From a virus, in the IMG/VR virus record IMGVR_UViG_3300008807_000804, positions 1 through 6,304 of that record: DNA of 6,304 nt, one strand, 5' to 3'. A model generated the notes under the pieces. The model worked only from the letters and a program-made list of their open reading frames with translations, was not told the DNA's origin and ran no database searches. Each line of letters opens with the position of its first letter. Position 1 is the stretch's first letter. This document shows positions 1,779-6,304 of the stretch, one piece after another. The position numbers and the translations under genes are program-made.

Positions 1779-2411
1779 ATGACCATCAAACTTGGCAATA
1801 TCGCCGATTGGCGCGTTCTTGAAGGCAAGTCGCTGTCGTTTGTCGCACCGGACTATGACGCCAAAAAGCCGCGCCGTGTGGTGCTGTATGTAAACAGCGA
1901 AGCGGCTTGCAATTGGTATATCCAATCTGCGGAAGGTGAACGATTTCTGGCTGCTTTACCAGCCGGTCTGGAAACGCTCGACTTCGTGTGCAACGGCGAT
2001 TTCGACCTGATGCCAAACAGGGCCGAAGGGGTCGAAATACAGTATTGGACGTCGGAAGCTGAGGAATATTGGACCGAAGGCGACGGCGAAACCTTCTCGA
2101 CCATCTATGAGCGCCAGCCGCGTAATGAGGCTTTGGAATATGTCATGTTCCAAGCCTCTCAGAACCAGCTTCGCCGCGACAAGGCCCATGCGGAAGAGCT
2201 TGCAGCAATTCGGGCCGAAATAGGAGCGATGAATGCAGGACAGTCTGGAATACATGGCGGCTCGGCTGCGCAACATCAGGAACCTGGAGCCTCCGGCTCC
2301 GGTGGTGCGCAAGGCGCGGGTGCGGTTCCGGGAGCGGGAGTGGGAAGCGGCGCGGATGGCAAAGACGGCGCCCAAGGGGCAGACGGAACGCCTAAAGGCG
2401 AAAACCCGTGA
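1779..2411 (+). CDS. Hypothetical acidic protein, 210 aa, with a C-terminal Gly/Ala-rich low-complexity tail. It could be a scaffolding or structural protein, judged by position only
   Basis: ATG 1779 has AAGGA (1766-1770) 8 nt upstream. The N-terminal ~110 aa look beta-rich. A helical, charged segment follows (NQLRRDKAHAEELAAIRAEIGAM), and then GGSAAQHQEPGASGSGGAQGAGAVPGAGVGSGADGKDGAQGADGTPKGENP. The stop TGA 2409-2411 overlaps the next start. Confidence 0.65.
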   Translation: MTIKLGNIADWRVLEGKSLSFVAPDYDAKKPRRVVLYVNSEAACNWYIQSAEGERFLAALPAGLETLDFVCNGDFDLMPNRAEGVEIQYWTSEAEEYWTEGDGETFSTIYERQPRNEALEYVMFQASQNQLRRDKAHAEELAAIRAEIGAMNAGQSGIHGGSAAQHQEPGASGSGGAQGAGAVPGAGVGSGADGKDGAQGADGTPKGENP

Positions 2412-3061
2412 GCATGGCCGATAAGATCAGAGAGGCCGTAAGGCGGGTTGCCGAAAGGCAAGCCGCCCTCCCCGACCCCAATCTGGCCAAACGGGTCTTC
2501 CCCCCTCCCCCGCCGCGTCCTGTGCCCGATACGGGCTACAGTCAAGCGTTGGCGGGGATGGTCGACAAGCTTTATCTGAAGTCGAGTAAATTCGTCGATC
2601 AGCAAATGCGGGCCGATATTAAGGGCGCTCATCCGGCGATAGTCGATTTCTCGCGACTGCTTGTTAGACGTATGGCGGCGCTCGGTGTCCCGATGTACCC
2701 GCATTGCGTCTGGCGGGATCGTGAGGCGCAAGAGAGGGCTTACAGGCTCGGCCATAGCAAAGCCCCGTGGGGTGAAAGTCCTCACAACTTCGGTTGTGCG
2801 GTGGATATCATCCACTCACGCCACCTGTGGGACTTGTCCCCTAGGCAGTGGCAAATTGTCGGCCATGTCGGCAACGAACTGGCGGATGCAATGGGGCTAC
2901 TGCTCGATTGGGGCGGTGATTGGAAGAGATATCCCGATGCGCAGATAGGTTGGGACCCGGCTCATTGGGAGTTGGGCGACTGGCGGCGCGGTAAAGCGCT
3001 GCCTTGGGATGCGGAAAAGCATCCTCGCGAAGCCGACTGGCGCGCTAGAATAGCGCGCTAG
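2408..3061 (+). CDS. Zinc metallopeptidase of the LAS/peptidase M15 type (VanY / L-alanyl-D-glutamate peptidase-like). Putative endolysin, 217 aa
   Basis: Motifs read by eye: CVWRDREAQERAYRLGHSKA (R..xQ...G.SKA), SPHNFGCAVDI (SxHxxGxAxD, with H codon 2783-2785 and D codon 2804-2806), DWGGDW, and DPAHWE (H codon 2963-2965). This is the H...D...H zinc triad arrangement of M15/LAS enzymes. The start is either GTG 2408 (GTGA overlap with the upstream stop, AAGGCG 7 nt upstream) or ATG 2414. Confidence 0.85.
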   Translation: MSMADKIREAVRRVAERQAALPDPNLAKRVFPPPPPRPVPDTGYSQALAGMVDKLYLKSSKFVDQQMRADIKGAHPAIVDFSRLLVRRMAALGVPMYPHCVWRDREAQERAYRLGHSKAPWGESPHNFGCAVDIIHSRHLWDLSPRQWQIVGHVGNELADAMGLLLDWGGDWKRYPDAQIGWDPAHWELGDWRRGKALPWDAEKHPREADWRARIAR

Positions 3062-3099: not shown

Positions 3100-3152
3100 C
3101 TCACTCATCTTCTTGTCCCCATGTGCAATTACTGACAGGCAATTATTCAGCG

Positions 3153-4256
3153 ATGTGCAAGTGCCCCACTATGCTCGATGACGGAACGATAATTGGCTGT
3201 CGTTATTGCTCGCAATGCGTGGGCCGGGCAGTTGATGACTGGACGGGCCGTTGCATTGCGGAAAGTATATTTGCAGTCGCTCCGTATTTTCTGTCTCTGA
3301 CCTATGGTCGGGACGAAAACGGGGCGGAAGACCATATCCGGGCGCGGCTGCTAACATACTCGGACATCCAAAAGCTTATGAAGCGCTTTCGCGCGTCCGG
3401 TTATATCCCGCGCTATTTCTGCGTCGGGGAATACGGATCGGCTAAAGGCCGTGCGCATTGGCATGTCCTAATCTTCTGGAAGGATAATTCAGCGGAGATC
3501 GCAAAGCGGATCGAGCACAACGAACTGGTGCGGGCTAAGCTTAAGCGCGGCAAAACGTTGAACGTCCCCGACGGTCCGGTGCCTCCGCATCAGCCTTCCA
3601 CGCGTGACAATCAAGTGCGCCATATTCAGGAGCACTGGCCGCAAGGCTTTTCCACATGGGAAAAGCTCGGCGTCGCGCCTGAAGATACTGCCGCCGCTGT
3701 CCGGTACGTGTGCAAGTACCTCAATAAAGACATAGGCGGTGAAGAAAAACAGGCCATATGCCGTATGTCGAAAGTGCCGCTTCTCGGCGCTGACTGGCTG
3801 CACCATCGTGCGGCCTTGCATGTGGAGGCCGGTTTTTCGCCTCCTGACCTGAAATACGAATTCCCCGGCGTCAATCGCCCGAATGGGGAACGGGTTAAGT
3901 TCATGCTGCGTCCGGGATCGGCTGCGGCAAAACTCTACTGTCAATCTTTCGTGGATCAATGGGCGCGACATCGCCCTGGCCAACATTGGCCACCATCGAA
4001 GTTGATTGACGAATTCATAGACCCCGGCGCTTGGGAAAAGCGCAAAACGGACGAAGGGCAGTACCAATGGGAAAGAAAAGCGGAAGCAATGGAAAAAGCC
4101 GCAACGGCGGCGCGGGAGCTGGAATACGAACTGTGGCTAGAAGCCACGGTGTCAATCGGGCCGCTGCGTTATCCTCAATACCAGCGGGACGCAATGCGCT
4201 CCCCTCCCCTCAAAAGTCCATCGCCGCAACCGGACGTGCCGTTCGGCGGTCTCTGA
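3153..4256 (+). CDS. Rolling-circle replication initiation protein (HUH endonuclease, Microviridae gpA/VP4 type), 367 aa from ATG 3153. An alternative upstream start is GTG 3123
   Basis: Cys-rich N-terminus MCKCP...GCRYCSQCVGRAVDDWTGRCIAE. Motif 1 is FLSLTY (3288-3305). The HUH motif is AHWHVLIF (HWH codons 3456-3464). The double-tyrosine motif is YVCKYLNK (3705-3728), which compares with phiX174 gpA YVAKYVNK. Confidence 0.92.
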   Translation: MCKCPTMLDDGTIIGCRYCSQCVGRAVDDWTGRCIAESIFAVAPYFLSLTYGRDENGAEDHIRARLLTYSDIQKLMKRFRASGYIPRYFCVGEYGSAKGRAHWHVLIFWKDNSAEIAKRIEHNELVRAKLKRGKTLNVPDGPVPPHQPSTRDNQVRHIQEHWPQGFSTWEKLGVAPEDTAAAVRYVCKYLNKDIGGEEKQAICRMSKVPLLGADWLHHRAALHVEAGFSPPDLKYEFPGVNRPNGERVKFMLRPGSAAAKLYCQSFVDQWARHRPGQHWPPSKLIDEFIDPGAWEKRKTDEGQYQWERKAEAMEKAATAARELEYELWLEATVSIGPLRYPQYQRDAMRSPPLKSPSPQPDVPFGGL

Positions 4257-4273
4257 CCGATATAGCGGCTAAG

Positions 4274-4546
4274 ATGGCTGTTGCCCGTTTGGAGCATGAC
4301 AGGCGCGTAGCGGCTGGCTTCCTCGCCGCTCCTAAACCGCAAAAACCTAGGGTGTCTCGGCTCAATATCTCGGCGCTTGACGCCAAAGCACTCAACATAT
4401 CACGGGAGCCTGTGAAAACAGTCGATCATAAAAAATCGCGCGACCATCTAATGACGTGCAAAAAGAGGCCGGACCCCCACAAAAAAGACCGCCACACCGT
4501 AGGGGGCGGATCAGCGGTTAAACGGTTCATCCCGTGGTGCGGCTAA
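4274..4546 (+). CDS. Hypothetical basic protein, 90 aa. Its position matches protein C/VP5 of other microviruses (synteny only)
   Basis: ATG 4274 lies 18 nt after the rep stop. It is Lys/Arg/His-rich (KKSRDH..CKKRPDPHKKDRH). It is the 3-prime part of track ORF 4031..4546, which overlaps the rep C-terminus in another frame. The SD is weak. In gokushoviruses and phiX174 the gene after, or overlapping, the end of rep is VP5/C. Confidence 0.45.
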   Translation: MAVARLEHDRRVAAGFLAAPKPQKPRVSRLNISALDAKALNISREPVKTVDHKKSRDHLMTCKKRPDPHKKDRHTVGGGSAVKRFIPWCG

Positions 4547-4565
4547 AAGGAAAAGGGCAATTGGT

Positions 4566-4601
4566 GGCAGGTTGCAGGGATTTCCCCCCTGCAACCCTGC
4601 C
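4566..4601. other. GC-rich hairpin 1 of the large non-coding region
   Basis: GGCAGGTTGCAGGG-ATTTCCC-CCCTGCAAC(C)CTGCC forms 14 pairs with one bulged C (4597). Confidence 0.55.
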
Positions 4602-4625
4602 TGACCGGCGAGGTCCGGGGGGCAA

Positions 4626-4704
4626 GGTGTCAATAGGGAGTGGTGCGGGCGCAGCCGAAGGCGAGCCACGGTCCCTATTTACACCGCGCTAGGGGCGGAG
4701 CCCC
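4626..4704. other. Long imperfect stem-loop (4626-4685) plus a small hairpin GGGGC-GGA-GCCCC (4692-4704)
   Basis: GGTGTCAATAGGGA (4626-4639) pairs with TCCCTATTTACACC (4672-4685) at 13 of 14 positions. The stem continues inward as GTGG/CCAC (4640-4643 with 4666-4669). An apical GCC-GAA-GGC hairpin sits at 4654-4662. Confidence 0.5.
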
Positions 4705-4817
4705 AGTCCTTTGTGTAAAATTTTAACTATGTGCTTGACAAGTCCGTGACAAATCAGATTTGGGTTGGACTGTAAGTATAGAAACGAATATAAGCGAAGC
4801 TGCTAAGTCTTTCGTTT

Positions 4818-4845
4818 TTCGTGCATAATCTATCTTATGCGACTA
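4818..4845. other. dif-like XerC/XerD-type recombination site candidate (GCATAA-N6-TTATGC)
   Basis: TTCGTGCATAA-TCTATC-TTATGCGACTA was aligned by eye to E. coli dif GGTGCGCATAA-TGTATA-TTATGTTAAAT. This gives 17 of 28 identities, and 15 of 17 across the inner core (positions 6-22). Confidence 0.4.
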
Positions 4846-4881
4846 TCGTTTCGCATAGGGTGCGAATGACGTTCGACGGCG

Positions 4882-4905
4882 TTTCGTTTTGACTTCAAAA
4901 CGAAA
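4882..4905 (+). promoter_or_regulatory. Hairpin abutting and overlapping the ribosome-binding site of ORF78
   Basis: TTTCGTTTTG-ACTT-CAAAACGAAA has a 10-bp stem. Its 3-prime arm ends inside the AAAGG SD (4903-4907), which lies 7 nt before ATG 4915. Confidence 0.45.
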
Positions 4906-4914
4906 GGTTTGTTT

Positions 4915-5151
4915 ATGAAATCAATTCTCCTGCGGCTTTCGCGTCCGATCCTAGAACGGGTCGGAACCATGATTGCCGCCTACTTGATCGCGCGCGGTGT
5001 CGATAGCGACTTGGCGGCGCAACTGATGAACGGCGCGATGGCGATCGCCTTTCTCGTTCTCGATACGCTGACTTCGTCGGTCTATCGGGAGCATGACGAA
5101 AAGCGGCTTTATGCCGAAATCTACGACCGCATGACAAAGGAGGTCGCCTAG
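4915..5151 (+). CDS. Small moderately hydrophobic protein, 78 aa, with a charged C-terminus. It is a candidate membrane or holin-like protein
   Basis: ATG 4915 has AAAGG 7 nt upstream (the track starts at TTG 4909). Hydrophobic stretches are VGTMIAAYLIA and GAMAIAFLVLDTL. The tail is charged: REHDEKRLYAEIYDRMTKEVA. It ends at TAG 5149-5151, in the same frame as the following pilot-protein ORF. Confidence 0.55.
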   Translation: MKSILLRLSRPILERVGTMIAAYLIARGVDSDLAAQLMNGAMAIAFLVLDTLTSSVYREHDEKRLYAEIYDRMTKEVA

Positions 5152-5235: not shown

Positions 5236-5898
5236 GTGGACTATGTGAAGCTGCGCCAGAACGCGGAAGCGGCGGGCTTCAATCCGCTGACGGCGCTTCG
5301 TGCCGGTGGCGGAGCGGGGTTCACCACGACGCACCACCCTTCCCTCGCCTCTGGCGGGTTCATGGCCGATGCTCTGTCGAGTTTCGGCAACGCGATCGCG
5401 TCCATCGATCCGATGCGCGATGCAACCGCCAAGCTTGAATATCAGATCAAGCAAGAGACGCTGAAAAACATTCAGGCGGATACTGCCGCCCGCAAGCGGG
5501 CGTCTCTCGGCGGTGTGCCGGTTTCAACCGGCGCAAGGACGGTCGTTCGTGCTTCGCCGCTTCAAAGGGGCCTGCCCGCTTCTGCGGGACTGCCACAAAT
5601 GCCGACGGTCGAGACGCCTACGGTGACTAATCCGTGGCCTACTTCAAGTGGTTGGCCGGTCAATCCCGGTCTGCCGGATGCTGCGACGTATGAGCAACGT
5701 TACGGCGAGCCGGGGGACTGGATCGGCGGCGTTCTCACGTTCGGTGGTGACGTGGCGAATTGGCTATATCGGGGCCAACAGTATTTGAAGCGTCAAACCG
5801 ATGAGGCGCGCAAGAGACCGTATCGCGCGCCGCCTGATCCATATGATCGGAAGATGTATATCCCGCCAGCGTTGTACGGCGGACCTAGTTACCAATAG
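5236..5898 (+). CDS. Minor capsid / DNA pilot protein (gokushovirus VP2-like). The coordinates give the conservative canonical-start version (GTG 5236). The true N-terminus is probably near 5155
   Basis: The motif ...VKLRQNAEAAGFNPLTALRAGG... matches the conserved ..AAG(L/F)NP.LA.. signature of VP2 proteins. The frame is open back to 5152 and encodes the Gly-rich hydrophobic leader FIQALIGPALGLVGSLIGGSKKQ that is typical of VP2 N-termini, but with no ATG, GTG or TTG. The C-terminal half is Pro/Gly-rich. Confidence 0.75.
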   Translation: MDYVKLRQNAEAAGFNPLTALRAGGGAGFTTTHHPSLASGGFMADALSSFGNAIASIDPMRDATAKLEYQIKQETLKNIQADTAARKRASLGGVPVSTGARTVVRASPLQRGLPASAGLPQMPTVETPTVTNPWPTSSGWPVNPGLPDAATYEQRYGEPGDWIGGVLTFGGDVANWLYRGQQYLKRQTDEARKRPYRAPPDPYDRKMYIPPALYGGPSYQ

Positions 5899-6069: not shown

Positions 6070-6304
6070 ATGGCTTCAATGAACAGAACCTCCGTTCTTC
6101 CCATGGAGGTGCCTAAGACAAACCGCGTCGAAACTGCGCGCGGCATTACATCCCTGCCCGCTGGTAAGGCGGTCCCTATATACGCCACCGGCCTGCATCG
6201 CATGGATCGGATCGTGCAGGGGCCGCTTCGTTTCTCATTCGAACTGATGGAAACGGCGGACGTGCTCATGAACGCGGTGCGCGTGGACGTGAAAGCCTAT
6301 GTCG
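6070..6304 (+). CDS. Major capsid protein (Microviridae F/VP1 family), 5-prime part. Continues through the circular junction into 1..1520
   Basis: ATG 6070 is preceded by AAAGGA (6057-6062) at 7-nt spacing. It translates as MASMNRTSVLPMEVPKTNRVETARGITSLPAGKAVPIYATGLHRMDRIVQGPL... and runs off the window end with no stop. Base 6214 corresponds to base 9, and 6214-6070=144, so it is in frame with track ORF 9..1520. The track omits it because it has no stop codon within the window. Confidence 0.85.
   Translation, partial: MASMNRTSVLPMEVPKTNRVETARGITSLPAGKAVPIYATGLHRMDRIVQGPLRFSFELMETADVLMNAVRVDVKAYV
6206..6304. repeat. Terminal redundancy, copy 2 (assembly overlap of a circular molecule)
   Basis: Identical to 1-99. 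Confidence 0.95.

Follow-up and report, generated by a model that had tools for sequence, protein, structure and literature searches.

Among microviruses, the use of host XerC/XerD for lysogeny is known from the enterogokushoviruses, whose integration has been shown experimentally to depend on XerC/XerD and dif, and whose XerD arms are variable (PMC7062461). Enterogokushovirus EC6098 and the gokushovirus prophages of E. coli have no integrase and carry a dif-like motif of 28 bp within a short non-coding stretch; the prophages are flanked by a canonical bacterial dif and by one derived from the phage, in which most of the variation is in the XerD arm and spacer, and deletion of the XerD arm abolished integration (Kirchberger & Ochman, 2020, PMC7062461). 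For the Alpavirinae-type proviruses of Bacteroidetes, which also lack an integrase, the use of host dif and Xer has been proposed on bioinformatic grounds (Krupovic & Forterre, 2011, PMC3091885). XerCD at dif is likewise exploited by the IMEX of Vibrio (VGJphi, TLCphi and CTXphi types), which are filamentous phages or satellites: VGJphi and TLCphi have a duplex attP as substrate (that of TLCphi with a degenerate XerD arm), whereas the attP of CTXphi is a folded single strand formed from two inverted sites. In the microvirus lineage that concerns us here, prophages have already been reported from Mesorhizobium and Rhizobium (PMC9753089, PMC9512667), their att sites are not described in the published work (PMC9753089, PMC9512667, PMC11499846), and a study of 2024 found no dif motifs in the alphaproteobacterial lineage and considered the integration mechanism elusive (PMC11499846). 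Thus, XerCD/dif integration of microviruses and the existence of prophages in this lineage are known, and the new element is the dif-like att sites described below, which fill that stated gap.

The DNA analysed (the window, 6304 nt) has an exact terminal direct repeat of 99 nt (positions 1–99 = 6206–6304), indicating a circular contig with a unit genome of 6205 nt, all of whose genes are on the + strand (Table 1). Its nearest annotated phages are the Tortoise microviruses, the Flyfo microviruses and Rhizobium phage RHEph17 (42% identity to the last in the capsid, 33% in Rep). It resembles 'Occultatumvirinae' and the Rhizobium chaparro- and chicoviruses in its M15 peptidase, high GC content, Hyphomicrobiales hosts and gene order, the succession VP2-VP1-peptidase-VP4 being that of the 'Occultatumvirinae'/Rhizobium microvirus group (PMC9753089, PMC9512667, PMC11499846). 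From VP1/VP4 homology and gene order, it is provisionally placed in an 'Occultatumvirinae'-like lineage of the Microviridae. Exact-protein lookup with the window's Rep gave no record elsewhere, and among IMG/VR viral contigs a capsid scan yielded no relative and an exact search with the window's inner site yielded nothing; a degenerate site search there (TTCCNNNNTCTATCTTATGCGA) retrieved two contigs, neither of which resembles the window in its proteins, and one of these contigs has a canonical dif. The first-pass annotation of the sequence had noted that no integrase is encoded, and our Pfam and PHROGs searches of 18 ORFs on both strands agree, having revealed no integrase or recombinase domain and no families other than those of Rep and the M15 peptidase (the capsid had no Pfam match). 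TLCphi encodes the activator XafT, of which a novel counterpart might still be encoded here. Pfam gave nothing meaningful for ORF78, and its two hydrophobic segments, in a genome with an M15 peptidase, make it a holin candidate, one without a family match.

Table 1. Positions of the features discussed in the text (window numbering).
Feature	Position	Strand	Details
Putative dif-like attP	4818–4845		28 bp, 11-6-11; sole such site in the genome; based on M. loti dif match, shuffles, and synteny with nine provirus junctions
XerD-type arm, degenerate	4818–4828		top TTCGTGCATAA, bottom TTATGCACGAA; inner CATAA retained, outer GTTCC replaced
Central 6-bp crossover region TCTATC	4829–4834		identical to the centre of M. 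loti dif
XerC-type arm, conserved	4835–4845		top TTATGCGACTA, bottom TAGTCGCATAA; 10/11 to M. loti XerC arm AAGTCGCATAA
Inverted partial XerC-arm copy TCGCATA	4851–4857	+	can pair with TATGCGA (4836–4842), 7/7, 8 nt between arms
Promoter-like block TTGACA (4735–4740) ... AAATCA (4751–4756)	4735–4756	+	~80 nt upstream of attP
10-bp hairpin	4882–4905	+	directly before ribosome-binding site and ATG (4915) of ORF78
210-aa ORF	1779–2411	+	
M15 peptidase	2408–3061	+	
Rep, rolling-circle replication initiator (VP4-like)	3123–4256	+	PF23343 7.7e-16; phrog_942 1e-29
78-aa ORF (ORF78)	4915–5151	+	two hydrophobic segments; no Pfam family
Pilot-like protein (VP2)	5236–5898	+	220 aa
Major capsid protein (VP1)	6070 across junction to 1520	+	551 aa

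Between Rep and ORF78 lies the genome's only AT-rich stretch (GC 0.405 at 4701–4900, against roughly 0.5–0.66 elsewhere), and it was here that the first-pass annotation had recognized a dif-like architecture, with the inverted arms GCATAA/TTATGC around a 6-bp centre; both the sequence and the coordinates of this site proved exact. The earlier comparison had been with E. coli dif, and its count of 15 matches in the 17 inner positions (made by hand) stands, but over the full site the match is 17/28, which is within chance, as the best matches in 300 dinucleotide-preserving shuffles had a mean of 16.2 and a maximum of 19. The dif of the host clade is more informative. The published dif of M. loti MAFF303099 is AAGTCGCATAAGATAGATTATGGAACTT (PMC2731167, Table 1), and against its reverse complement (AAGTTCCATAATCTATCTTATGCGACTT) the site matches at 22/28 positions (6/6 in the centre and 10/11 in the right arm). 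Neither 300 shuffles of the whole genome nor 3000 confined to the AT-rich segment 4690–4910 gave more than 19/28, so that the site does better than shuffled AT-rich sequence. No other part of the window matches M. loti dif at 16 or more of the 22 arm positions. The left arm, compared with the M. loti XerD arm (TTATGCACGAA vs TTATGGAACTT), matches at 6/11. In the orientation of the host-clade sites, the right arm is thus the XerC arm and the left a degenerate XerD arm, the reverse of the assignment first made, with the proviso that the arms of Rhizobiales dif are themselves assigned by alignment to E. coli dif (PMC2731167) and not by biochemistry. The TCTATC centre is found also in the dif of M. 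loti, of two provirus-free Mesorhizobium strains (L021 and L022, see below), of M. comanense (L006) and of Aminobacter sp. BE82 (L007).

Proviruses related to the window are informative about the role of this site. A capsid search gave many close homologues within long bacterial contigs, and nine distinct proviruses, with capsids 52–85% identical to that of the window, were recovered from Aminobacter, Mesorhizobium and Rhizobium DNA and in metagenome contigs. Capsid identities of 78–85% are shown by those in the A. niigataensis chromosome (L001), a plasmid of Mesorhizobium sp. ANAO-SY3R2 (L002 = L004; NZ_CP159954.1) and an A. aganoensis contig (L003 = L005), and lower identities by those in M. 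comanense (L006), Aminobacter sp. BE82 (L007), three metagenome contigs (L008–L010) and Rhizobium rhizogenes (L024). All have the order ORF78-pilot (VP2)-capsid (VP1)-ORF-M15 peptidase-Rep, with ORF78 as the first gene, directly right of attL, and Rep as the last, left of attR; each is 5.7–6.1 kb long, with a dif-like 28-mer in direct orientation at either end; and in every case the phage circle has been opened between the equivalents of window positions ~4550 and 4915, in synteny with 4818–4845. At attL, the canonical arm GTTCCATAA is present in all nine, while the corresponding arm of attR is variable or degenerate (for example TAGTTCCAGTT, AAGTTCCTGTA, AGATTCCTAAT and ATTGTTCATAA) and is near-canonical in L003 only; a conserved TTATGCGAC-type arm is present at both junctions. 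The integrated phage, with hybrid sites at both ends, that the first-pass annotation had proposed to look for next to dif is therefore found for nine relatives, though not for this exact genome. The provirus on the 410-kb plasmid of L002 occupies a dif-like site with a divergent XerC arm (TTATCCGGCAT), which suggests that secondary replicons with Xer sites of their own are also targets.

Is the chromosomal target really the dif of the host? The attB rebuilt from L006 is CAGTTCCATAA-TCTATC-TTATGCGACTT, and a 28-mer identical to it occurs once in the 21-kb loci of each of two provirus-free Mesorhizobium strains, PAMC28654 (L021) and LjRoot246 (L022); this 28-mer and the published dif of M. loti agree at 27/28 positions. 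This empty site is just downstream of a tmk-holB-metG-tatD-MBL cluster, which is also the left flank of L001, L006, L007 and L009. On either side, the octamer GGGNAGGG, of the FtsK-orienting type, is directed at the site, with 22 forward and 4 reverse copies in left flanks and 2 forward and 18 reverse copies in right flanks (counts that are not fully independent, the flanks being partly homologous), and the empty sites of L021 and L022 show the same reversal of polarity. GC skew in the 7–9 kb flanks was uninformative, staying within ±0.05 with no consistent change of sign. The target site is thus intergenic, located where motif polarity converges, and conserved in the clade, as a chromosomal dif would be. 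On its right side, the distance to a conserved aldose-epimerase gene varies from ~0.5 to ~7.7 kb among Mesorhizobium (L021 11420–11954; L006 14921–16584; L022 11721–19460), consistent with elements having been gained and lost there repeatedly.

Other features of the DNA beyond attR deserve mention. Just to its right in L001 (14662–14685, TTATGCGACTAtcgtaatgtagg) and L024 (14672–14690, TTATGCGATTAtcgcatgtagcgg) are sequences resembling that to the right of attP in the window (TTATGCGACTAtcgtttcgcatagg), which may be remnants that earlier integrations at dif left behind. About 26 bp to the right of the attR XerC arm, L001 (14685–15780, intact) and L002 (14900–15190, truncated), which represent different replicons and genera, have an IS30-family element (HTH_38 + rve). 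We considered whether this element might be the phage integrase, and rejected the idea, as neither the free genomes nor the remaining proviruses have it. The left inverted repeat of the element (GAAGTGCGACTTG) and the outer part of the dif XerC arm have TGCGACTT in common, which may reflect IS30 targeting of dif-like sequence or the common ancestry of the block.

Free circular relatives (L011, L013, L014 and L015) have exactly one such site each, in the same intergenic position, and so have Tortoise microvirus 47 and the Flyfo microviruses Tbat2_110 and Tbat2_105, whereas none was detected in the lytic Rhizobium phage RHEph17 or in Tortoise microvirus 79. In all, 16 relatives have kept the site in this position, despite divergence of the sequence on either side.

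A comparison of the arms reveals a marked asymmetry between phage and host. The XerD-type arm GTTCCATAA is invariant in 12/12 host sites. In the phage and provirus attP sites, it is the XerC-type arm that is conserved (17/17 sites; mean 3.9/4 for inner and 4.7/5 for outer positions), and the XerD-type arm is degraded, chiefly in the four bases beside the centre (mean 2.2/4 in the 17 phage-derived sites). The window and L008 represent a minority type, in which the inner ATAA is kept (4/4) and the outer part matches only at 2/5; the outer half of the window's arm is the most divergent of the set, and the arm is without the A that is conserved at position 25 of dif. Since the two centres are identical in eight of the nine proviruses, the crossover point cannot be read there. 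The exception is L008 (sites at 8769 and 14628), with GATAGA at attL and TCTATC at attR, its attR arm (ATTGTTCATAA-TCTATC) being also the closest to that of the window. L010 (sites at 1426 and 7542), which has GATAGA at both ends, is 99.93% identical to L008 over 7151 nt (the host left flank and most of the provirus), the two diverging ~130 nt before attR and having different right flanks. The L008 pattern fits an exchange made only at the XerC-arm boundary and followed by replication, in other words a XerC-first reaction, which we regard as probable rather than shown because it is seen in a single provirus.

From all this, we conclude that 4818–4845, which mimics the dif of the host, is very probably the XerCD-dependent attP of a temperate phage, a microvirus with hosts among the Phyllobacteriaceae (Mesorhizobium/Aminobacter-type). 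The combination of a dif copy, the absence of an integrase and the presence of relatives at dif makes it very probable that the phage becomes a prophage by means of host XerC/XerD, and the earlier suggestion of a temperate phage with a dif-like attP is borne out by relatives located at bona fide dif with hybrid ends and a syntenic breakpoint. The evidence, which comes throughout from relatives and hosts, consists of the sequence match, the breakpoint synteny, junctions of hybrid type, an unoccupied target site and a motif polarity like that of a terminus. We propose that host XerC binds the conserved right arm of the double-stranded replicative form, that XerD is recruited to the degenerate left arm, and that the complex then synapses with a chromosomal dif having the same TCTATC centre and recombines with it. 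The resulting attL (host XerD arm, centre and phage XerC arm) would be a fully canonical dif, and attR (degenerate phage XerD-like arm, centre and host XerC arm) would be crippled, so the arrangement should preserve dimer resolution and limit excision. For this phage, attL would read CAGTTCCATAA-TCTATC-TTATGCGACTA and attR TTCGTGCATAA-TCTATC-TTATGCGACTT, and the expected hybrid junction would be TTCGTGCATAATCTATCTTATGCGAC followed by host sequence. Three points are inferred, namely the activity of the window's copy, an initial strand exchange made by XerC and a stabilizing effect of the degenerate attR on lysogeny; the main remaining doubt concerns the activity of this copy, given its unusual XerD arm.

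With no recombinase of its own, an attP that matches host-clade dif, and relatives found at dif for which empty sites also exist, the phage would take its place among the IMEX. Its group shares with the E. coli gokushovirus prophages the pairing of a canonical bacterial dif with a phage-derived one that differs mainly in the XerD arm/spacer, and with EC6098 the absence of an integrase and the 28-bp motif in a short non-coding region, but it belongs to another microvirus lineage (6.2 kb vs about 4.5 kb), with an M15 peptidase and an alphaproteobacterial host, and its site mimics Rhizobiales dif (TCGCATAA/TTATGGAAC) rather than the enterobacterial one; the dependence of integration on host XerC/XerD has been shown only for the E. 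coli gokushoviruses. The dif/Xer proposal is the same as that made, also bioinformatically, for the Alpavirinae-type proviruses, which are of a different subfamily and infect a different phylum. The duplex attP recalls VGJphi and TLCphi, and the degenerate XerD arm recalls TLCphi.

Might the site have lost its function, as a decaying attP in a lineage once temperate, the present genome being lytic or maintained as an episome in a carrier state? The outer XerD arm has indeed lost GTTCC, the site is patchy in the wider clade (as in RHEph17 and Tortoise microvirus 79, which are without it), the integrated copies found are all of other genomes, and carrier-state episomes have been reported for related microviruses (PMC9753089). 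However, neutral decay would not be expected to leave the XerC arm (10/11) and the centre (6/6) intact, degenerate XerD arms are the rule among integrated relatives, and L008, whose arm ATTGTTCATAA is similar (2/5 in the outer part), is integrated at dif, so that we think decay unlikely.

Two other readings dispense with integration. XerCD sites on plasmids act in multimer resolution, and a complete duplex 28-mer could serve in this way, like cer or psi, for the double-stranded replicative form. Sites of the cer/psi type typically have roughly 200 bp of accessory sequence. Microviruses replicating by rolling circle have no known need for dimer resolution, and every integrated relative has been opened exactly at this site, so that we think a role of this kind highly improbable. 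The remaining idea, of a palindrome due to chance, or of some regulatory feature common in AT-rich non-coding DNA, and in either case unrelated to Xer, could have been entertained had only the chance-level match to E. coli dif (17/28) been available; it is effectively refuted by the 22/28 match to host-clade dif (shuffle maximum 19), by the retention of position in the 16 relatives despite their diverging flanks, and by the provirus junctions and empty sites, and we give it hardly any credence. An XerCD-dependent attP thus remains the reading that we prefer.

The first-pass annotation had also drawn attention to a third half-site downstream of the 28-mer, capable of pairing with its right arm, and had supposed that the single-stranded form might be masked or remodelled, a link to the folded attP of CTXphi being called speculative there. 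The pairing partners TATGCGA and TCGCATA are present as described, and the half-site repeat folded alone gives –5.3 kcal/mol (z –4.2), better than all of 200 shuffles. In a context of 61 or 105 nt, however, the best fold consists of the dif palindrome and a hairpin at 4850–4855/4861–4866, rather than the half-site pairing. An inverted XerC-arm copy (at least 6 nt, within 30 nt downstream) is found at five of 15 attP sites, namely those of the window, L006 (9 nt), L009 (7), L014 (6) and L007 (6), and is missing from the other ten, including that of the closest relative, L011; such copies are more frequent than chance would give, and their position is not conserved. Part of the pattern may be due to stubs of earlier integrations. 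We therefore discard a folded single-strand attP of the CTXphi type, there being only a 7-nt partial copy of the XerC arm and neither a second XerD arm nor a second centre; nor is a folded substrate needed, because a complete duplex 11-6-11 site explains all the junctions.

For the Rhizobium/Mesorhizobium/Aminobacter lineage of microviruses, these sites provide a testable mechanism of integration in which attP, attB, attL and attR are exactly specified. The 6-bp centre and XerC arm, when compared with clade-specific dif sequences, can predict hosts for uncultured microviruses (TCTATC pointing to those of the Mesorhizobium/Aminobacter type), and whether a member has the site or not distinguishes likely temperate phages from lytic ones. 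Moreover, the recurrent combination of an intact XerC arm with a mutated inner XerD arm offers natural material for studying how exploiters of Xer bias the outcome towards stable integration.

The non-coding region around attP has further features. The promoter-like block upstream has an AAATCA that is invariant in the seven sequences aligned (the window and six relatives), and a TTGACA present in six of them (TTGAAC in L001); its likeness to a promoter is one of sequence, and promoter function would be our interpretation, a consensus sigma-70 scan of 4250–4950 having called no promoter. Motifs of the type 'cgtttt...aacgaaagg', comparable to the hairpin at 4882–4905, are found at the same place in relatives. 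Since attP lies between the promoter-like block and ORF78-VP2-VP1, integration would separate them. One could imagine, though we think it rather doubtful, that integration separates the promoter from the structural and lysis genes that it serves and so acts as a topological lysogeny switch in a phage without a repressor, reversion being tuned by the mutated inner XerD arm at attR, and perhaps modulated by the inverted XerC-arm copies. Two GC-rich inverted repeats, GGCAGGTTGCAGGG...CCCTGCAACCCTGCC and AATAGGGA...TCCCTATT (window 4560–4600 and 4630–4680), are situated after the Rep region and before the AT-rich stretch; they may be terminators or structures related to an origin. Finally, three relatives have an extra minus-strand ORF of 78–85 aa between Rep and attP (L002 14490–14747, L013 4990–5226 and L014 2111–2347) that is not present in the window; Pfam searches of these ORFs gave nothing meaningful, and they could represent an accessory or lysogeny-related gene.
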